Source: Candidatus Omnitrophota bacterium (GTDB taxonomy: Bacteria > Hinthialibacterota > Hinthialibacteria > Hinthialibacterales > JAKPRU01). Taken from it: a stretch of DNA of 24,000 nt. The translations under genes and the position numbers were made by a program. Within the stretch, counting starts at the first letter, position 1. Every line of letters starts with the position of its first letter. Of this stretch, positions 1,762 through 14,610 are shown one piece after another. The notes under the pieces were generated by a model. The model worked only from the letters and a program-made list of their open reading frames with translations, had not been told where the DNA came from and made no database searches. Location: positions 52,585-76,584 of the forward strand of contig JAKQSI010000032.1 of NCBI GenBank assembly GCA_029570205.1. The letters run 5' to 3'.

Positions 1762-3747
1762 TCAACGTTGATCGACTTCCCCGGAAGTCGAATCGGGCGA
1801 CGGTTCGGACTCTGAAGGTTGGGTGAAATCTTCCGGCGATCCTTTCTCGGAAACGATTGCAGACTTTTCCGCAACAGGTCTCGATTCAACCGGCTGATTC
1901 TCCTCATCAGCGCTTTCCGCATGTGCCCCCGGACCGAGAATCGCCTTGACTTCCTCTACCTGCAGAACCTCTCGTTCCAAGAGGGCAGTGGCCAGTGCAT
2001 CCAGCCTGTCGCGATGTGTTTCCAGAATACTCCGCGCAACCGCGTGACATTCATCAACCAGGTGGCGAACCTCTTTGTCGATTTCGAACGCGATTTCCTC
2101 GCTGTAGTCTTTATCTTTATAGAAGTCCCGTCCGAGGAAAATCTGGTTTTCGTTCACCCCGAAAGTAAGCGGACCCAGTTTTTCGGACATCCCGAATTGA
2201 CAGACCATTTTGTGCGCAATGTTGGTAACCCGTTCCAGATCATTCTGAGCGCCTGTGTTGACATCACCGAAAACCAGTTCTTCCGCGACCCGACCTCCGA
2301 GAAGTCCGGCCATCCGGGAAAGCAACTCGGTTTTGGTTGTGAGATAGCGATCCTCGGTAGGCAGGTGCATGGTATACCCCAACGCCCGTCCGCGCGGAAG
2401 AATCGAGACCTTGTGGACAGGATCACAGTCCTTGAGAAAGTGCATCACAACAGCATGACCCGCCTCATGGTAGGCGACAATCCGTTTTTCGCGATCGTTG
2501 ATGGCTCGGCTCCGTCGCTCCGGCCCGGCGGTTACCCGTTCGATCGCTTCTTCGAAGTCGGACATGTCGACGGCGTTTTTATTGAGTCTGGCTGCCAGCA
2601 GGGCCGCCTCGTTCACGGCATTTTTGATATCTGCGCCGGAGAACCCCGGCGTTCGTCGGGCCAGCAGGGCCAGATCGACATTCCGTGCCAAAACCACATT
2701 CCGGGTATGAACCTTGAAAATCGCCTCCCGGCCTTTGAGATCCGGACTGTCCACGACAATCTGACGGTCGAATCGTCCCGGACGAAGAAGCGCCGGGTCC
2801 AAAACATCCGGACGATTGGTGGCCGCGATGAGAATCACTTCATCGTTGGAGTTGAAACCGTCCATTTCGACGAGCAGCTGGTTGAGAGTCTGTTCGCGCT
2901 CATCGTGGCCGCCCCCCACGCCGGCGAAACGCTGCCGACCGACGGCGTCGATTTCATCCATGAAAATCAGGCACGGCGCGTGTTTTTTACCCTGTTCGAA
3001 CAAATCGCGTACACGCGATGCCCCTACACCGACAAACATTTCCACGAAGTCGGAGCCGCTGATGCTGAAAAACGGCACGTTCGCTTCCCCCGCGACAGCG
3101 CGCGCCAGAAGCGTCTTGCCGGTTCCCGGTGGACCGTGCAACAGCACCCCGCGCGGGATCTTGCCGCCCAGTCGCTGAAACTTCTGCGGATCTTTGAGAA
3201 ATTCAACTACTTCTTGCAGTTCCTCTTTCGCCTCGTCGCAGCCCGCCACGTCATCAAAGGTAACTTTCGGTCCCCCTTCCTGCTGGAGCCGCGCTCGGCT
3301 TTTTCCGAATGACATGGCCTTGGTTCCACCGATCTGCATTTGACGCAGGATGAAAAACCACACCCCGATCAGCAACAACACCGGGAAAACATTCAAGAAT
3401 GCGCTGAACAGCCAGCTGCTTTGAGTAGAAGCCTCATACTGAAGGGACGGATTAATTTCTTTCTTGTAAGTGGCGAGACGGTCCCGGATGCTCTCGGAGT
3501 ATTCCGGCAGGATATGGACCTGGAATTCCCGCTCCGGCTCGGTTCCGTCCGGTCCATCCGGATCGTATTTCCCCTGGATACTGTCGAGGGAAACAACGAC
3601 ATAAGTCAGCACACCACCTTTGCCGTCCAGGAGTTCATCGAACTGGTCCAGTTTCATTCGGACCAGCGGGGTCTCCTGCACAAGGTGGACGACCACAATG
3701 ATGACGATAAGCAGCAGCCCGTAAAACAGAACGGTTCGATTGAACAA
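1762..3747 (-). CDS. ftsH: ATP-dependent zinc metalloprotease FtsH
   Basis: This 661-aa ORF has an N-terminal TM helix ([17 protein letters not shown]) and a second TM ([23 protein letters not shown]). It carries Walker A GPPGTGKT, Walker B IFMDEIDA, the SRH motif [19 protein letters not shown] and the zinc site HEAGHA. It uses a TTG start with SD GAGG 7 nt upstream. The C-terminal tail is acidic and S/P-rich. Confidence 0.97.
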
Positions 3748-3922
3748 GTAAGTACCTCAAGGTTTCGGTTGCCTCACAGGCCCCACGATTCGCACCGGGG
3801 AAAAACGAAACAGCCCCGCATTTCCCCCGGATTATATTTCATTCTTATGGTAAACTTTTCACAAAGCAATATCAAGCAGAATGGCCAATCCGCCCCGGGG
3901 ACACGCCACACGGGAGGACAGT

Positions 3923-4375
3923 ATGAACTTTCCGCTCAAGAAAGTGATTGTGTATCTAGCGATTCTCATTGCGGTCTGGTACGGATACCGGCGTTTGATG
4001 GACCTGCCGGTAACCTGTGTAGCCTTTGTCGAACCCACTCTCAAAAAAGGACGTCCAAATGTCCTTGAGATTCTCCTGTCTAAAGTTGTGGACAGCCGCC
4101 GGGAACTGACGGGTAACGATCCGTACAAGGTGTATGCCTTTGCCGGGGATAAGGACCGACTCGAATCGGTCTCGTTCACCCATAACGGTCAACCTGTTCC
4201 TTTCAAAGTTGATCCGGAAACGGAGACCAGTTCGGTTGAAGTCGACGGGGACACGGAACCGGGGTTACACACTTATGTTCTGAAGGCGCGTGACACCAGG
4301 GGACACGAATCTGTTGCCAGGCTGATTATCAACATCAGACTGGTGCCGATTGTCCCGGTGGGCGGGGTGATGTAG
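3923..4375 (+). CDS. Hypothetical membrane-anchored protein (N-terminal TM helix, beta-rich ectodomain)
   Basis: I trimmed ORF 3881..4375 to the ATG at 3923, which has SD GGAGG 5 nt upstream. The sequence begins MNFPLKKVIVYLAILIAVWYGY (TM helix), followed by a beta-strand-like region (HTYVLKARDTRGHESVARLIINI). I recognised no family. Confidence 0.5.
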   Translation: MNFPLKKVIVYLAILIAVWYGYRRLMDLPVTCVAFVEPTLKKGRPNVLEILLSKVVDSRRELTGNDPYKVYAFAGDKDRLESVSFTHNGQPVPFKVDPETETSSVEVDGDTEPGLHTYVLKARDTRGHESVARLIINIRLVPIVPVGGVM

Positions 4376-4400: not shown

Positions 4401-4434
4401 CCTCACCCCGGCCCTCTCCCGGAGGGAGAGGGGG
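4401..4434 (-). repeat. REP-like palindromic element, copy A (inverted orientation)
   Basis: The plus strand reads CCTCACCCCGGCCCTCTCCCGGAGGGAGAGGG. Its reverse complement, CCCTCTCCC-TCC-GGGAGAGGG-CC-GGGGTGAGG, matches copy B at 27 of 32 positions. It forms a perfect 9-bp stem (CCCTCTCCC/GGGAGAGGG) with a 3-nt loop. It sits in the convergent gap between 3923..4375 (+) and 4505..6571 (-). Confidence 0.85.
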
Positions 4435-4504
4435 ATTGGGATTGCTCTTGCAGAATGGGAAGGGACCGACAGGGCTTATAGGACCCATACGATCCATAAA
4501 ATAC

Positions 4505-6571
4505 TCAGAAAAACGCGATCTCCGGTGGGGGCGAGACAGGAGTTCCCGCAAGGTTGAGATGCGCATAAAGCGCCCACGCAAGAGCATAGACCGTATCGTC
4601 ATGCACTGTCCGGGAACCTTCCGGGTGCCCGAACGAGAACCGTCCGGTCGCCTCACGTCGATACTGAAAGGCCTTCAGTTCGGAGATCAGAGTCTCTGAG
4701 ACATCGAGCGGAATCTCGATCTCTTTCCGACGGAACAGGTTATACAGCGTATTGAAAATAATTTGCTGGGTGGCAGCGGTCGGCGCGATCAGTTCCGTTT
4801 GCACCCCCAAAGCGGTCAGGTAGTCCGCAAGGCTTTTGCCCTGGTATTGCTCGACAGCCGCGTGAGCAATGCCGTACCTCTCCACCAGACGCGCGGCCTC
4901 ACGGTGGATTTCATTGGTATCGGCGCGGGTCAGACGGACAACATCGATGACCCGATATCGTAATTGCGTTTCTTCCTCGGATTGCACATAAGGCCACGGA
5001 AGATTCTCCTCGGCTTCCATAGAGACTCCATACCTCGCCAGGACCGCCAACGCCGATGCATCATGGGAATCGTCGTAAGACAGGGCCAGGTCCGCGCCGA
5101 GGGTGGCCATTTCTCCCTCGCCGAGTTGTTGTGCCGCGTGGGGCACAATCATCGGGTCAATCAACCCGGCAAACAGGCTATGGCTACCCTCTACCCACTC
5201 CGCCATCACCTCGGCGCGGAACTCCAGTTCTGTGCGTGACCGTCTCAGCCGTTCGATTTCTTCTTCCCGAATTTCCGGATTGACTGTACTGGGCCATTGA
5301 AAAGAAATGATGTCATCCCTCTTCTCCTGGCCGTCCCGGAATAACGGGTACACCCAGGAATGGACCGAGGACGGAGAAGAGACAATCGCCATCCGCCCCT
5401 GGTCTTTCTCTGTAGTAATCATGGCGTACTCGACAGCGGCGCGGATTTCCTCGCCCTGTTCCATATAACAGGCCTCATCCAGGATTACGGAAAGGCTGCC
5501 GGTCGTCTCATCGGATTTGCACGGATGATACCCGCGAATAGTCGCTGCTTTTGCAGGCAGGAAAATGATTCGAGACTTGTTCCGGAGAGTGATCCGTTCG
5601 GCGCCGGATTCGGTAACAAATTTTTTCAAGTCCGATGAGTCCAGCAGATCGAGCATCCTCTTGCCGAATTCCGAGCACATCCGCACCCCCGAGGACACAA
5701 CCAGCACAGTGTGATTGGATTTACGGCAGGCGGTATAGAGCGCGAATACCCTTGCCGCCATCGATTTGCCCGCGCCGCGACCGGCCATCATGATCACGAC
5801 CCGGTGAGGCGCATTGCAGAACTCCACCTGGTGAGGGTACAGAGTCACCCCAAGGGCCTCACGCGCGAAGGTCGCGGGATCGGCCAACCGACCCAAAGGG
5901 ATGCTATCGGCTTGTTCGTTGATTTTCGACGTCGTATGCTGCTCGATTTCCTTGAGGAGCCGCATCAGGATGGTGGTCTGCTGCGCGCGGGTTTTTCGAA
6001 GCGCATCACGTTCTTTCGGTTCGAGGCCGCCCCAACAGAGTTCCCGGTCGATATCGGCGAGGGTCTGTTCGGTGGCGGCGAACTGTTCAATCAGCGGCAG
6101 TAAGAGCGCGTTGCATCCGGTCATCTGTTCGAGTTCGCGAATGCGGGTTTGCAAGGGTACCTCATGGTCCATTCCACCTTGCTGCGCCGGCGGTTGCAAG
6201 CGAAGCCGGATGAGTCGCTGCCCGCGTTGCAGCCTGTATTCCACAATCCGTTCGCTTGCTTTCAGAATCACGAGTGTGCGGCCGATGGTGCGTCGATCTC
6301 GTTGGATCTCTCTGGCCAGTTCGCGGATATGAAACTGGACCATGCCTATCTCGTCGCAATGGCTGTTCAGCCATCGGCTGACAAGGGTTTCCGTTGTGGG
6401 GGCTTGTTTTGTTCTCACGGAAATCGTTTCTCCTATTATTAGAGGGAATCGGCGCAGAAAGGGGGATTTTGATGCGCGGGTGGCCGGTGTGATGAATCGA
6501 GACGTAGCGGAAGGATGGATACGGGGCGGGGTATTGAAATACAAACCGTCAATGACATTGAATGCCTTCAT
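4505..6571 (-). CDS. Terminase-large-subunit-like ATPase/nuclease with an N-terminal winged-HTH and coiled-coil extension (orphan)
   Basis: This is a 688-aa ORF. Its motifs are Walker A VIMMAGRGAGKSMAA, Walker B LSVILDEACYM, a coupling-motif-like IVSSPSS, and RNaseH-like nuclease acidic motifs LGADLALSYDDSHDASALAV, AAVEQYQGKS and TVHDDTVYALAWALY. This pattern is typical of phage TerL (Terminase_3/6-like). The N-terminal ~230 aa include FHIRELAREIQRDRRTIGRTLVILKASERIVEY (wHTH-like) and a helical segment. A more likely start is the GTG at 6418 (AGGAGA upstream), because the first 51 codons look non-coding. Confidence 0.8.
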   Translation of the reverse strand: MKAFNVIDGLYFNTPPRIHPSATSRFITPATRASKSPFLRRFPLIIGETISVRTKQAPTTETLVSRWLNSHCDEIGMVQFHIRELAREIQRDRRTIGRTLVILKASERIVEYRLQRGQRLIRLRLQPPAQQGGMDHEVPLQTRIRELEQMTGCNALLLPLIEQFAATEQTLADIDRELCWGGLEPKERDALRKTRAQQTTILMRLLKEIEQHTTSKINEQADSIPLGRLADPATFAREALGVTLYPHQVEFCNAPHRVVIMMAGRGAGKSMAARVFALYTACRKSNHTVLVVSSGVRMCSEFGKRMLDLLDSSDLKKFVTESGAERITLRNKSRIIFLPAKAATIRGYHPCKSDETTGSLSVILDEACYMEQGEEIRAAVEYAMITTEKDQGRMAIVSSPSSVHSWVYPLFRDGQEKRDDIISFQWPSTVNPEIREEEIERLRRSRTELEFRAEVMAEWVEGSHSLFAGLIDPMIVPHAAQQLGEGEMATLGADLALSYDDSHDASALAVLARYGVSMEAEENLPWPYVQSEEETQLRYRVIDVVRLTRADTNEIHREAARLVERYGIAHAAVEQYQGKSLADYLTALGVQTELIAPTAATQQIIFNTLYNLFRRKEIEIPLDVSETLISELKAFQYRREATGRFSFGHPEGSRTVHDDTVYALAWALYAHLNLAGTPVSPPPEIAFF

Positions 6572-6690
6572 TTATGGGGTGAAGCAAGCACAACCGAGCA
6601 TTTGAAGAACGGTGGATGGACGCTTCCGGGAAACCATGCAAGAATGAATTGTGTGAAGGGAGTAACCGACAATGAAATGTGAGTATCACA

Positions 6691-7716
6691 ATGCAAAGAA
6701 AGCTTTTTGACGATCCGGTCTGCTCCATTCCGCCGAGAAATGGCGAGACCCGCGAACCTTATGGTCGGATTGATGCTGATCCGGAGACCCATGCCAAATT
6801 ACTGGCCTATTGTCGGTTACGGCCAGGGGAAGTCTGGTTGGATTCGGAGAAAGGGCATCGGGTGGGTGTGCTGGATGCAACGAATGTCGAACATGTCGCA
6901 GGAGTTGTGGGGGAAGATAGACCCGCGCTTTTCGTAAACGATCCGCCTTACAACGTGGCTGTCGGGAATTCGAATACGTGCAATCTTCCAAAGACGGAAC
7001 TATCCGCCTACATGGTTTTTTCGAGAAAATGGGTGGAGAACTGCGCCAGAGTTATGGGCGATAACGCCCACTTTTACGTTTGGCTAGGGGCTGATGTTCG
7101 CGACAATTTCCAGCCTCTGCCGGATTTCATGATTATGATGCGTGATATTCCTCAACTGAAGCCGCGCAACTTTATCACACTGCGCAACCAGAGAGGCTAT
7201 GGAACCCAGAAAAACTGGATGTGGGTGAGACAGGAACTACTTCATTACATCCATGGCGATCCCGATTTCACCGTGCAGTACACCAATATCCCAAAGATCC
7301 TCCGAGGTTACTACAAGAACGTGAACGGCAAGATAACGGAGAACATAGAGCGCAGTAAATCGGGTAATATCCGTCCCGGCAACGTGTGGGTAGATGTGCA
7401 ACAGGTGTTCTATCGTATGGAGGAGAACGTTCCGGGATGTTACGCGCAGAAGCCCCTCAAGGCGATCGAGAGAATTCTGCTGTCAAGCAGCAAGGCCGGC
7501 GATTGTGTCTTGGATTGTTTCTCCCACTCAGGAACCACACTGATCGCAGGAGAGAAACTTGGCCGACGGGTTGTGACCTGCGATATCGATCCTGTATTTG
7601 CCGAACTGACGATCAGGCGGCTTGAGCACTACCGAAAAACCGGAAGAACGGGATGGCAATGGCATAATCCGTTTCCTGAGATGGAGCAAGTCTATGACGC
7701 AGCGGCAACTGCGTGA
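6691..7716 (+). CDS. Beta-class N6-adenine/N4-cytosine DNA methyltransferase (N6_N4_Mtase, PF01555-like)
   Basis: Motif IV (FVNDPPYNV) precedes motif I (VLDCFSHSGTTLIAG), which is the beta-class circular permutation. The flanking residues ALFVNDPPYN and QKPLKAIERILL are typical of the family. I trimmed the ORF from the GTG at 6679 to the first ATG at 6691. Confidence 0.9.
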   Translation: MQRKLFDDPVCSIPPRNGETREPYGRIDADPETHAKLLAYCRLRPGEVWLDSEKGHRVGVLDATNVEHVAGVVGEDRPALFVNDPPYNVAVGNSNTCNLPKTELSAYMVFSRKWVENCARVMGDNAHFYVWLGADVRDNFQPLPDFMIMMRDIPQLKPRNFITLRNQRGYGTQKNWMWVRQELLHYIHGDPDFTVQYTNIPKILRGYYKNVNGKITENIERSKSGNIRPGNVWVDVQQVFYRMEENVPGCYAQKPLKAIERILLSSSKAGDCVLDCFSHSGTTLIAGEKLGRRVVTCDIDPVFAELTIRRLEHYRKTGRTGWQWHNPFPEMEQVYDAAATA

Positions 7717-8413
7717 ATACCTGGACGCATTCATCAGAACACTCGGACAGCAGGACAGAGATTTCCTTGATGCTCGTCTGCAATCCCTCGCTTCCGTATT
7801 CCCGTTCAACGAGTACGAGTATATCCTTATGTTTCTTCGGGATCGGTCGGTGATCTCCTTCCAAGAGTATGAAGATTTGAGGAACAGGTATGTCTCGGCC
7901 AACCGATACTTGAACCTTTTTGGCCTTGCTCCTCGGATATTCGGCCAGATCTGGGGCGAACAGCATCTCAGGGATCTGGATTCGAGGTTCAGGAAAGCGG
8001 ATAAAACTGTCGATACGGATCATGAAGGACAGTATGATCTGTGGATCGAAGGTGTCCGCGTTGAAGTAAAGGCGGCGCGGGCAATCGACACGAAAAAACG
8101 TGGAGACTTGGTTTCTAAGGCCCTGAGAACGGATTCGGAACGCCCATTCTGGATGAATTTCCAGCAGTTGAAATTGGATATCTGTGATGTGTTTGTGTTC
8201 CTGGGTGTGTGGGTGGACGCCATCTGCTATTGGGTGTTGTCCCACAATGATGTGAAGAACAGTCCTTACCTCAGTCACCAGCACAGGGGAGGCATCGAGT
8301 ATCAGATCGGGATCAACCACAAGAACATTTCCGCGTTTGAGAAGTATCTTGTTGACCCCCCTCATGTCGCGGAAAAAGTGATCGCACTTGGCCAGCGGAA
8401 TGGAAGGCGATGA
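7694..8413 (+). CDS. Putative restriction endonuclease (PD-(D/E)XK-like), partner of the upstream methyltransferase
   Basis: I trimmed ORF 7622..8413 to the first ATG at 7694, which has SD GGAG 7 nt upstream. It overlaps the methyltransferase 3' end by 23 nt, consistent with translational coupling. The candidate catalytic motif is GQYDLWIEGVRVEVKAARA (D...E-V-K). No specific family was recognised. Confidence 0.55.
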   Translation: MTQRQLREYLDAFIRTLGQQDRDFLDARLQSLASVFPFNEYEYILMFLRDRSVISFQEYEDLRNRYVSANRYLNLFGLAPRIFGQIWGEQHLRDLDSRFRKADKTVDTDHEGQYDLWIEGVRVEVKAARAIDTKKRGDLVSKALRTDSERPFWMNFQQLKLDICDVFVFLGVWVDAICYWVLSHNDVKNSPYLSHQHRGGIEYQIGINHKNISAFEKYLVDPPHVAEKVIALGQRNGRR

Positions 8414-8443
8414 ACCCTGCGCAACCACAGGGGGATTGCCGCC

Positions 8444-8476
8444 CCCTCTCCCGGCGGGAGAGGGTTGGGGTGAGGG
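8444..8476 (+). repeat. REP-like palindromic element, copy B
   Basis: The sequence is CCCTCTCCC-GGC-GGGAGAGGG-TT-GGGGTGAGGG, with a perfect 9-bp stem. It lies 30 nt downstream of the stop of 7694..8413. Confidence 0.85.
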
Positions 8477-8666
8477 TCTTCTTGCGTTGAATCGGCACTC
8501 TATCGTTGTATGATTCCTGCGGCACCCACAGGCGGATTGCCCCCGCGCAAGAGGGGGATTAATCCGGCATGATTGCCGGACCATAAATCACGGTTAAAAT
8601 GACCGCACCTTGGGCGAGGGAATACGGTGTTGGGAAGGAATTTCTGTTCTGGCTACTCAATCATCG

Positions 8667-9347: not shown

Positions 9348-9658
9348 TCGGTTTCTCCTGCCGTCAAATTCTGCGTGCGATATGCGGTGACAATCCAATG
9401 CCGAGTTCGTTCCGCCTTCTCCGTGATGACAACGACAACAACGTACTTCCCACCGGGAAGGCTGTCGAACCACCGCGCGAACAGACATGCGTCAGAGCAG
9501 CGTAGACTGCGTCGAACACGGTCGGGATCTTCCAACGTCCCCGCGATGAGTTCATAGCACCTGGGAAGCATATCCGGATGTCTTTCAACAATGTGTTTCA
9601 TCCGTTCATCAGTCAATGCAACTTGACTGCCCAGATATGGACATGACAGAAAAGGCAT
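9332..9658 (-). CDS. Small toxin-like protein (H-I-V-E-R-H-P-D-M family, possible BECR/RelE-like nuclease fold)
   Basis: This 108-aa ORF contains LTDERMKHIVERHPDML...LEDPDRVRRS...GGKYVVVVVITEKAERTRHWIVTAYRT. From memory it matches a widespread small-protein family found next to DUF2283 genes, but I am not certain of the family name. An AAGG SD precedes the ATG at 9658, and the upstream region is AT-rich. Confidence 0.6.
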   Translation of the reverse strand: MPFLSCPYLGSQVALTDERMKHIVERHPDMLPRCYELIAGTLEDPDRVRRSLRCSDACLFARWFDSLPGGKYVVVVVITEKAERTRHWIVTAYRTQNLTAGETEWTRN

Positions 9659-9765
9659 TCTGAACCTTCATTTTATCAATATAGTATATCAGCAAATAGA
9701 CCAGGAGATCGGAAGCGTTTTCTGGAGTACGGTCCGGGGAGGGATACCGTGGTGTTCCGTGCCCC

Positions 9766-10740
9766 CTACTTCTTCAGCTCCTGCATCCTTTCATACATCT
9801 GTCGAAGCGAACCGGCAGCGCGAACATCGCTTCCGGAAATGAGGATTCGATACCCGTCTTTCAACCGTTGCTCGACCGATTTCTCATCCGCCCCGACAAT
9901 CAACGGCACATGGTGCTTCTTGCAGGCTTCGCTGACGGCCTGAAATCCTTCCATCACCTCCGGATGTTTCATATCCCCATCCACGCCGCAGCTGAAACTG
10001 TAATCGTAAAGCCCGAAAAAGATCGCACCGACACCGGGGACAGACAGAATCTCGTCGATGTTCTTCCTGCCCTCTTTGTCTTCAATCATCAGGATTGCCA
10101 GCAGATCGCCGTTCGGGTCCAGCGGCCAGACATCGGCGCGGGACACGTATTCCTCCGAGGTCAATCCCCACAGATAGGCGCACATGTCCGGTGAGGCCCC
10201 CCGTTTGCCTTTCGGCAGAGGCTGCGGATCGCCTTTCGGCTGGGGATACCGGCACGCCGAAATAACCCGCTGTGCGTCCTTCGCATTGGTGCAGTGCGGC
10301 ACAATCACCCCAAACGCCCCGGCATCCAAAACCTGCTTGATATACGGTTCAATCGGACCGGCGGCATCGCACGGAATCCGCACCCACGGCGCAATGCTCG
10401 GCTGCAAACTCCCCGTCTCCAGGACCTCCCGTTTTGAATGAAACGCCATCAGGATCGTCTGCAAGCGCTCGATATCGAACGGCAGATGCTCCATGTCGAT
10501 CAACACATAGTCGATCATCGGGGTCTTGAGGCCGGTATCGCGGTCTACATGCGCATTGGACTCCACCAGCCCGACGGCCGTATAAATCGACATCGACTTA
10601 AACCAGCTTCCCAGTGCGACTTGGTTCCGCTCCAGCTTCACGATTACCTTGTTCAAATGCTCGTCTGCCTGTCCCAGTACCGGGACCGATATTGCGGTCA
10701 GGACTGCCGAAATCACGATATGCATTCTCTGAATCAACAT
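9766..10740 (-). CDS. HpcH/HpaI-family aldolase with an N-terminal signal peptide
   Basis: This is a 324-aa ORF. YVLIDMEHLPFD, VIVPHCTNAKDAQRVISACRYPP-like and LAILMIEDKEGRKNIDEILSVPGVGAIFFGLYDYS match the HpcH/HpaI TIM-barrel aldolase signature. The N-terminus MHIVISAVLTAISVPVLGQADE looks like a cleavable signal peptide. Confidence 0.75.
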   Translation of the reverse strand: MLIQRMHIVISAVLTAISVPVLGQADEHLNKVIVKLERNQVALGSWFKSMSIYTAVGLVESNAHVDRDTGLKTPMIDYVLIDMEHLPFDIERLQTILMAFHSKREVLETGSLQPSIAPWVRIPCDAAGPIEPYIKQVLDAGAFGVIVPHCTNAKDAQRVISACRYPQPKGDPQPLPKGKRGASPDMCAYLWGLTSEEYVSRADVWPLDPNGDLLAILMIEDKEGRKNIDEILSVPGVGAIFFGLYDYSFSCGVDGDMKHPEVMEGFQAVSEACKKHHVPLIVGADEKSVEQRLKDGYRILISGSDVRAAGSLRQMYERMQELKK

Positions 10741-14473: not shown

Positions 14474-14513
14474 CTCTTCTCCCTCTTCTCCCGGGAGGGG
14501 GTTGGGGTGAGGG
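14474..14513 (+). repeat. REP-like element, copy C (degenerate stem)
   Basis: The sequence is CTCTTCTCCCTCTTCTCCCGGGAGGGGGTTGGGGTGAGGG. It shares the CTCTTCTCCC left arm and the TTGGGGTGAGGG tail with copy B and the CTCTTCTC/GGTGAGGG ends with copy E. It lies about 60 nt downstream of the porin stop. Confidence 0.7.
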
Positions 14514-14610
14514 AAAGAACGATAGTTGGCGCGAGGGTAATTCGGGGTGGCGCCGGCCTCTTGCTGGTGATCTTTGCGGACAGGGCCATTGACAATCTTG
14601 GGTATACAAC

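Follow-up and report, generated by a model that had tools for sequence, protein, structure and literature searches.

The stretch of DNA analyzed here, referred to below as the window, comprises 24,000 nucleotides of contig JAKQSI010000032.1 from Candidatus Omnitrophota bacterium (assembly GCA_029570205.1) and is ordinary bacterial chromosome. Between ftsH and a type II restriction-modification (R-M) cassette it carries a gene that an initial annotation had described as a phage terminase large subunit (TerL) fused to an N-terminal winged helix-turn-helix and coiled-coil domain, so that DNA recognition, normally the task of a separate small subunit (TerS), might be built into the protein. Our analyses showed that this gene (4505-6571, minus strand) encodes an intact TerL homologue. 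They also showed that it belongs to a solitary, conserved, chromosomal family, and this is a more interesting fact than the TerS fusion through which the gene had first been viewed. The features of the gene and its surroundings are collected in Table 1.

Table 1. The TerL-like gene, its domains and leader, and adjacent features, in window coordinates.
Feature	Coordinates	Strand	Remarks
TerL-like open reading frame as annotated	4505..6571	-	688 aa
TerL-like coding sequence proper	4505..6418	-	637 aa from GTG 6418; stop codon 4505-4507
In-frame upstream extension ("51 codons")	6419..6571	-	non-coding leader; not conserved as protein
Family-specific leader motif	6430..6468	-	present before nearly every family member
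Winged-helix domain, residues 9-72	6203..6394	-	AlphaFold2 H-E-H-H-E-E, pLDDT 88-95
Three long helices (89-100, 104-128, 134-171)	5906..6154	-	hairpin or coiled-coil-like; AlphaFold2, alignment
ASCE ATPase domain	5165..5878	-	Terminase_6N; Foldseek to T4 gp17 and P74-26 ATPase domains
Walker A GRGAGKS	5762-5782	-	ATPase domain
Walker B ILDEA	5471-5485	-	ATPase domain
RNase-H-like nuclease domain	4532..5164	-	PDB profile matches to G20c/P74-26 TerL nuclease; Foldseek
Nuclease residue D494	5090-5092	-	
Nuclease residue E574	4850-4852	-	
Nuclease HDD (D658/D659)	4595-4603	-	
C-terminal tail PPPEIAFF	4508..4531	-	family consensus PPxIxF, alignment; after low-confidence linker
REP-like hairpin CCTCACCCCGGCCCTCTCCC-GGA-GGGAGAGGGGG	4401..4434	.	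just downstream of stop; possible terminator
Small open reading frame, N-terminal membrane helix	3881-4375	+	85% identical to L002 counterpart
ftsH	1762-3747		
N6/N4 DNA methyltransferase, type II R-M	6679-7716	+	PADLOC; divergent from TerL-like gene
Restriction enzyme	7622-8413	+	PADLOC REase_II, E=3.7e-45

The assignment of the product as a TerL was supported by searches with both its sequence and its predicted structure. Pfam Terminase_6N matched residues 260-469 (E=1.2e-11; 45 bits, cutoff 22), with a match to Terminase_6C below threshold (E=0.23), and PHROG_2, "terminase large subunit", matched the open reading frame (ORF) with E=2.4e-35. Searches of NCBIfam gave only weak matches to terminase models, far under the curated cut-offs. 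The AlphaFold2 model, which was built with 45 homologues (mean pLDDT 85.2), matched full-length TerL structures in Foldseek, including T4 gp17 (2.5e-17), D6E, Sf6 gp2, and HK97; the nearest solved structures were those of the TerL of Thermus phage G20c/P74-26, T4 gp17, and the TerL of Geobacillus phage D6E. The motifs that had been reported as intact were found in their places, and GRGAGKS, ILDEA, D494, E574, and HDD were invariant or nearly so in alignments of 19-45 homologues. In the family alignment the columns of GRGAGKS, LDE, D494, E574, and D658/D659 were invariant. In addition, the PDB profile alignments placed the catalytic D and HDD of the G20c/P74-26 TerL nuclease in line with E574 and HDD. 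The protein therefore has the two structural properties of a TerL, an ASCE ATPase and a C-terminal RNase-H-like nuclease with acidic metal ligands. A third property of TerL genes, a place in a morphogenesis module beside the genes for TerS, portal, and capsid, is lacking.

The conservation extends to the end of the protein. The last 8-10 residues form a PPxIxF tail that is conserved in all family members and follows a linker (residues 625-633) modelled with pLDDT <50. In lambda gpA, T3 gp19, and P22 gp2 the corresponding C-terminal tail region binds the portal, and the PPxIxF tail may act as a docking peptide that engages a portal or some other partner, such as a sliding clamp.

The homologues of the TerL-like protein formed a family with a distinct boundary. 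A search of 5.8 billion proteins identified 45 clusters with scores of 333 bits or more and nothing below them, and a profile search added a single protein of 36 bits; the family as treated here comprises ~46 protein clusters at 90% identity. Where source labels were present they read "Candidatus Omnitrophota bacterium" or "Candidatus Hinthialibacter", and the sources had annotated members as "phage terminase large subunit". Among 2.9 million IMG/VR contigs, a pattern scan turned up no close relative, only partial relatives of 25-33% identity, and the best GenBank phage TerLs (HGTV-1 and Meiothermus and Thermus phages) were 24-29% identical. Literature searches, limited in coverage, returned no description of conserved solitary or exapted terminases, or of terminases in Omnitrophota or Hinthialibacter, which is absence of evidence only.

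Examination of 22 distinct loci, on contigs of up to 1.64 Mb and including 10 with precomputed Pfam annotation of the neighbours, did not identify a portal, capsid, TerS, or tail gene at any of them, and no phage structural gene lay within about 10 kb of any family copy. This finding runs counter to the phage-terminase frame in which the gene had been placed. The neighbours in the 10 annotated loci were housekeeping genes, encoding thioredoxins, sulfatase, GidA, asparagine synthase, TonB/ExbD, UvrB, YbeY, and DAHP synthase, and neither the annotated loci nor the window contained an integrase, primase, or tRNA gene. All-against-all clustering of the ORFs of 16, and then 20, loci showed the TerL-like ORF to be the sole gene shared. 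The 24 kb window itself held no phage gene, ten further ORFs in it matched no PHROG family, and tRNA and Rfam scans of the window returned nothing; a tRNA or att-like setting is lacking there. In GC content the TerL-like gene is host-like and equals its neighbours. Nearly all genomes have one copy of the gene; one metagenome-assembled genome (MAG) has two copies.

Comparisons between related loci indicated that the gene has descended with the chromosome around it. The block formed by the TerL-like gene, the small ORF, and ftsH is syntenic between the window and the locus of a 76%-identical relative (L002), and the synonymous divergence (dS) of the three genes was 0.77, 0.50, and 0.96, respectively. 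The ratio of non-synonymous to synonymous divergence (dN/dS) of the TerL-like gene in this pair was 0.18, in agreement with the earlier proposal that the gene is under selection and not decaying; that of ftsH was 0.08 (dN 0.075 over dS 0.96). By region, dN/dS was 0.33 in the winged helix, 0.19 in the helices, 0.12 in the ATPase, and 0.17 in the nuclease. In a second pair of loci (L022/L047) the TerL-like gene occupies one locus and its protein is 64% identical, compared with 80-87% for the neighbours, and the gene is also kept at the same locus in a third pair (L014/L021). Together, these data showed the TerL-like gene to be a chromosomal resident that is inherited with its neighbours, and one that evolves fairly fast yet under constraint; it is no relic.

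The initial annotation had regarded the first 51 annotated codons as non-coding and GTG 6418 as the more credible start, and our results led to the same conclusion. The equivalent codon is the start in the closest homologues (637-655 aa) and is also GTG in L002, and the residues directly after it are conserved and form helix 1 of the modelled domain. Similarity of the DNA to L002 ends at 6471, three bases past AATCCCCC, and a conserved non-coding motif at 6430-6468 falls inside the alleged 51 codons.

With residues of the N-terminal region counted from GTG 6418, the window protein has ~180 more N-terminal residues than phage TerL. The predicted winged helix consists of H9-20, E26-30, H31-38, H42-54, E58-62, and E67-72 in the AlphaFold2 model, and the three long helices follow it, so that the winged helix-turn-helix and coiled-coil elements first proposed from the sequence reappear in the model. 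No Pfam or PHROG family matched the region, and a profile of six N-termini compared with 1.84 billion cluster representatives recovered only its own clade and coiled-coil noise; the expectation that the module would not be a routine part of a known TerL subfamily was therefore upheld. An empty result from a word-indexed protein search with the N-terminal region was set aside as an artefact of sensitivity, since the search also missed P0002, a carrier. Foldseek with the N-terminal region alone produced no significant global match. There were local superpositions on winged-helix domains in the PDB (CodY, RbkR, Z-alpha, MarR, and plasmid Rep) over 63-69 residues, with a root mean square deviation of ~2 A and weak E-values, and, among viral models (BFVD), weak matches to phage replisome organisers and replication initiators. 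No small terminase was among the fold matches in either the PDB or BFVD. As far as the sequence and the model can tell, the predicted winged helix and helical module is new, and relatives of its winged helix were not detected outside the clade, among TerS proteins or otherwise.

A derivation of the N-terminus from a small terminase was not supported, since neither the sequence nor the fold searches gave a TerS family. TerS proteins such as lambda gpNu1 have an N-terminal (winged) helix-turn-helix and a helical oligomerisation core, and the window N-terminus has the same order of elements, a winged helix and then long helices. Based on the model, it could supply both TerS functions. It differs from TerS in showing no sequence or fold similarity, in being fused in cis to a TerL, and in that the winged helix is absent from most members of the family.

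The two parts of the N-terminal module are distributed unequally. Long forms with the winged helix make up six of the ~46 clusters, including that of the window (612-697 aa as called), and the remainder are short forms of 475-590 aa that lack it and keep 70-100 helical residues before the ATPase. The last two long helices are common to the whole family, and it is only there that short-form members align to the N-terminal region. Judged from these alignments, a helical extension before the ATPase is present in every family member and the winged helix is an addition in the subclade of the window. The proposed fusion thus consists of two layers: the helical part is family-wide, the winged helix is confined to a minority of clusters, and homology to TerS was not found. 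With so few clusters having it, the winged helix cannot be what makes the family work.

In summary, the likeness to phage TerL (Terminase_6N/6C, T4 gp17-like, PHROG 2) lies in the ASCE ATPase and RNase-H-like nuclease, their motifs, and the full-length fold. The family differs from phage TerL in its identity of at most 29% to any GenBank phage TerL, in its ~180 (or 70-100) extra N-terminal residues, in never occurring beside portal, TerS, or capsid genes, and in being chromosomal, vertically inherited, and provided with a conserved leader of its own.

This leader motif consists, in the window, of AATCCCCC (6461-6468), TTTCTGCGCC (6451-6460), a spacer, and a TAGGAG box (6430-6435). The family consensus is (TT)AATCCCC, ~5-8 nt, TTTCTGCG(C/G)C, and then TAGAG(A/G), with 20-22 nt between TGCG and the TAGAG box and the start codon a further 11-50 nt on. 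A stringent form of the pattern matched nine times in 324 kb of loci; eight of the matches lay directly before family members and the ninth was a duplicated leader. The geometry is promoter-like, with a pair of hexamers and a spacer of ~17 nt, and it differs from the sigma-70 consensus. The leader may be a cis site as well as a promoter. The conserved unit has its 5' edge at this motif in window/L002, in the duplicated pair L016/L017 described below, and in L014/L021.

The initial annotation had also drawn attention to flanking AGGGGGATT sites, which occur at 4430-4437 and 6461-6468. As a pair these did not hold up: four matches were found and 2.1 expected, a number reached by 14 of 100 shuffles, and the two copies belong to different elements, the upstream one to the family leader motif and the downstream one to a dispersed hairpin resembling repetitive extragenic palindromic (REP) sequences. 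A second, incomplete copy of this leader motif, AATCCCCCTCTTGCGCG, was observed at 8544-8560 on the minus strand (compare AATCCCCCTTTCTGCGC at 6452-6468). It lies beyond the R-M cassette in the same orientation, and the cassette is accordingly bracketed by the motif; the probability of such a copy by chance was roughly estimated at 0.01-0.02.

An intact TerL homologue in a stand-alone chromosomal gene, outside any phage or prophage, with ~45 equally isolated conserved relatives, suggests an enzyme put to a new use. The interpretation that we favor, with moderate confidence, is that the gene encodes an exapted, self-contained terminase that functions independently of TerS. In this proposed mechanism the winged helix, where present, would bind DNA, and the helical hairpin would gather the subunits, taking over the job that the TerS ring and the portal perform for phage TerL. 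The ASCE ATPase would translocate the DNA and the RNase-H-like nuclease would cut it. The likeliest site of action would be the gene's own 5' leader, based on this being the one conserved non-coding element and on the repeated breaks of synteny there.

Several points weigh against the interpretation of an exapted, TerS-independent terminase. The oligomerising role of the helical region is drawn by analogy, and most members have no winged helix, so built-in sequence recognition is not the core trick of the family. The leader motif may be a mere promoter for a dedicated regulator. The inverted-repeat tendency at its TAGAG box is weak (68.8% of cells paired, versus 65.1% in shuffles), and we do not claim a conserved leader hairpin or operator (CTCTAT..ATAGAG), as its covariation was reached by 11 of 500 shuffles. 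Long intergenic DNA rich in REP sequences could be all that lies behind the instability of the 5' flank. The 22 loci showed no capsid or portal gene, and PADLOC, which lacks a model of this protein, speaks neither for nor against a role in defence. All of the carrier genomes are MAGs. Lastly, a pair of 97.8%-identical copies and an inversion in place, both described below, hint at some mobility, which is awkward for pure domestication.

As to what such a terminase would do, we lean weakly toward a role with capsids made elsewhere, by a dispersed system akin to a gene transfer agent (GTA) or by a helper phage, based on the conservation of the complete packaging architecture including the C-terminal tail; a role without capsids is nearly as likely. 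The capsid-dependent reading, which we regard as possible but tentative, sees in the protein either the factor that initiates packaging for a dispersed GTA-like system or a minimal element that hijacks the proheads of a helper phage. It would cut a pac-like site in its own leader and pump the gene, together with the DNA lying 3' of it, into capsids whose genes are elsewhere. Consistent with this, the full TerL architecture, the motor and nuclease motifs, and the tail after its flexible linker are all conserved, and the leader lies directly 5' of the gene, which is where pac phages have their pac sites with respect to terL. In both window/L002 and L022/L047 the loci remain syntenic on the 3' side but not on the 5' side. 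However, there are only three synteny pairs, of which one is an inversion. In addition, the dS of the gene, equal to that of its neighbours, gives no sign of recent transfer.

The resemblance to GTA genes, such as that of the RcGTA large terminase, is that a phage-derived TerL is kept in the chromosome, where it is host-like in composition, inherited vertically, and held under purifying selection. The TerL genes of known GTAs, however, lie within a head-tail gene cluster beside TerS and portal genes, and here portal, capsid, and tail genes were found at none of the 22 loci, nor any structural gene within 10 kb. Phage satellites offer the parallel of a chromosomal packaging component that could act on the capsids of others, as with P4 and the TerS-like proteins of Staphylococcus aureus pathogenicity islands (SaPI) and phage-inducible chromosomal islands (PICI). 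Satellites carry an integrase, replication genes, and proteins of TerS rather than TerL type; integrase and replication genes and TerS-type proteins were not found in the window or the annotated loci, nor was an att-like context in the window. Membership of a PICI, P4-like, or PLE satellite was therefore not supported, in view of the lack of integrase, primase, and tRNA genes in the window and the annotated loci.

The capsid-free reading seems to us marginally less probable and is equally tentative. It proposes a domesticated, ATP-driven endonuclease or translocase that serves in anti-phage defence, for example by cutting, or competing for, phage concatemers, or in a chromosomal DNA transaction. 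The solitary state of the gene among housekeeping neighbours at every locus, its vertical inheritance, and the purifying selection on it are as expected of such an enzyme, and the added N-terminal module, with its predicted oligomerisation and DNA-binding functions, would free the enzyme from portal and TerS. In the window a type II R-M cassette adjoins the gene. However, this neighbour is unique to the window genome, and there is no conserved partner gene or consistent defence-island context. Membership of a known defence system was not supported by PADLOC-DB, in which the TerL-like protein had no family at E<=0.01; the methyltransferase and restriction enzyme were the only window proteins matched. 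An unregulated TerL nuclease would also be hazardous to the cell, and no immunity or regulator gene was seen.

More speculatively, and with considerable doubt, we suggest a one-gene terminase that recognises and cuts its own leader, after which it either (a) packs itself and the chromosome 3' of it into capsids provided in trans, or (b) makes the 5' flank a hot spot for recombination or insertion. If true, the former would be the smallest conceivable capsid-hijacking or GTA-type element and the latter the first site-specific DNA rearrangement module derived from a TerL, and in the clade of the window a winged-helix targeting domain would have arisen to do the work of a small terminase.

It is unlikely that the leader and gene (~1.65-1.7 kb) form a mobile module that moves or is copied as a unit, with the RNase-H-fold nuclease acting like a transposase or recombinase. 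The observations that brought this reading into consideration concern the edges of the unit. In the long-read MAG JBMNGS01, the two copies on different contigs (L016/L017; 9746-11449) are 97.8% identical over exactly 1704 bp, a stretch that starts at TTTTAATCCCCC and stops six bases after the stop codon, with unrelated flanks on either side; both copies are intact (dN/dS 0.30). In L014 (9816-11459) and L021 (6201-7844) the 1644 bp from motif to stop are 85% identical and collinear; the 4.2 kb block next to this unit in L014 (11803-16052) is found in L021 (5817-1626) beside its opposite end and reversed. This swap of side and orientation indicates that the single-gene unit was inverted in place relative to the conserved flank. 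The genomic contexts of distant members also differ, and in 3 of 15 loci the unit sits between direct repeats of 40 nt or more, compared with 1 of 61 control ORFs, which had shorter intergenic flanks. We gave these repeats little weight as they look like REP or tandem-repeat pieces.

Against a mobile module, the sharp ends of the L016/L017 unit show neither terminal inverted repeats nor target-site duplications, and multiple copies occur in only one genome, and on these grounds membership of the insertion sequences or transposons was rejected. The gene diverges together with its neighbours in three pairs of loci, and we know of no TerL that catalyses strand transfer. The 34-nt inverted repeats at 4401-4434 and 8442-8475 were considered as possible transposon ends around the TerL-like gene and the R-M cassette and were also rejected, as the hairpin recurs at ~14475 and in L002 and L004.

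Highly improbable, and already largely refuted, is an ordinary prophage terminase or a decaying remnant with a TerS-like domain fused on: the source annotation reads "phage terminase large subunit" and the sequence and fold are clearly those of a TerL, but there is no phage gene in the window or any homologous locus, the catalytic residues are invariant with dN/dS of 0.18, the gene has kept its place in genomes in which the neighbours are 80-87% identical, no member of the family was found in IMG/VR or among GenBank phages, and the N-terminus has no similarity to TerS.

These findings are important as lone terminase genes in bacterial genomes are routinely dismissed as prophage debris and are used as phage markers in virus-detection pipelines. 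The family described here differs from such debris in being consistently solitary, inherited with the chromosome, and kept intact by selection, with N-terminal additions and a leader of its own, and it gives rise to false-positive "prophage" calls in MAGs of Omnitrophota/Hinthialibacterota. Should the exaptation be real, the family would be a rare example of a viral DNA-packaging motor-nuclease recruited alone, by the cell or by a minimal selfish element, and would provide a natural TerS-independent terminase for studying how the motor is targeted and assembled.

The 5' flank of the gene showed further variation among the loci. In L007 a duplicate of the final 119 bp of the leader lies 3.9 kb farther upstream (5976-6093 and 9881-9999; 97.5% identity), and an array of 11.5 tandem copies of a 23-bp repeat (GGGGGATGAGGAAGAAACAACCG; 9652-9914) abuts the leader. 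Tandem repeats also abut the leader in L014 (362-bp units) and L029 (17-bp). An apparent difference between strains 5' of the gene (L052/L053) proved to be an assembly artefact, a run of Ns with an indel. Three independent assemblies of the L002 population from other samples (L003, L004, and L028), each with the gene, end 255-295 bp upstream of the GTG, equivalent to L002 8113-8151, which suggests that the population is heterogeneous or has a repeat there.

The R-M pair (6679-8413), immediately 5' of the leader, stands where L002 has a spermine synthase gene, and its lack of a counterpart there points to a recent insertion or replacement. The small ORF at 3881-4375, whose true start is probably an internal Met (MNFPLKK...), matched no family and was not found beside other family members. 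Other genes in the window encode an aldolase, a DUF3604 protein, ABC transporters, radical-SAM enzymes, and oxidoreductases.

TerL-like genes were also noted on two small (11-16 kb) plasmids. A Rhodococcus plasmid, pDJL3, carries a distant "terminase family" gene with a tape-measure protein and an integrase, and a Salinibacter plasmid, pSR11, carries one with a P4-type primase. Both genes are remote, at 25-28% identity, and these phage- or satellite-like replicons have no relation to the family described here. The REP-like hairpin downstream of the TerL-like gene (CCTCACCCC..CCCTCTCCC-N3-GGGAGAGGG..) has copies at 4401-4434, 8442-8475, and ~14475-14517 in the window, at 13114-13157 in L002, and in L004, and the element is genome-wide and not specific to this gene. 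Between the genes of the homologous loci, other REP-like repeats were also common.

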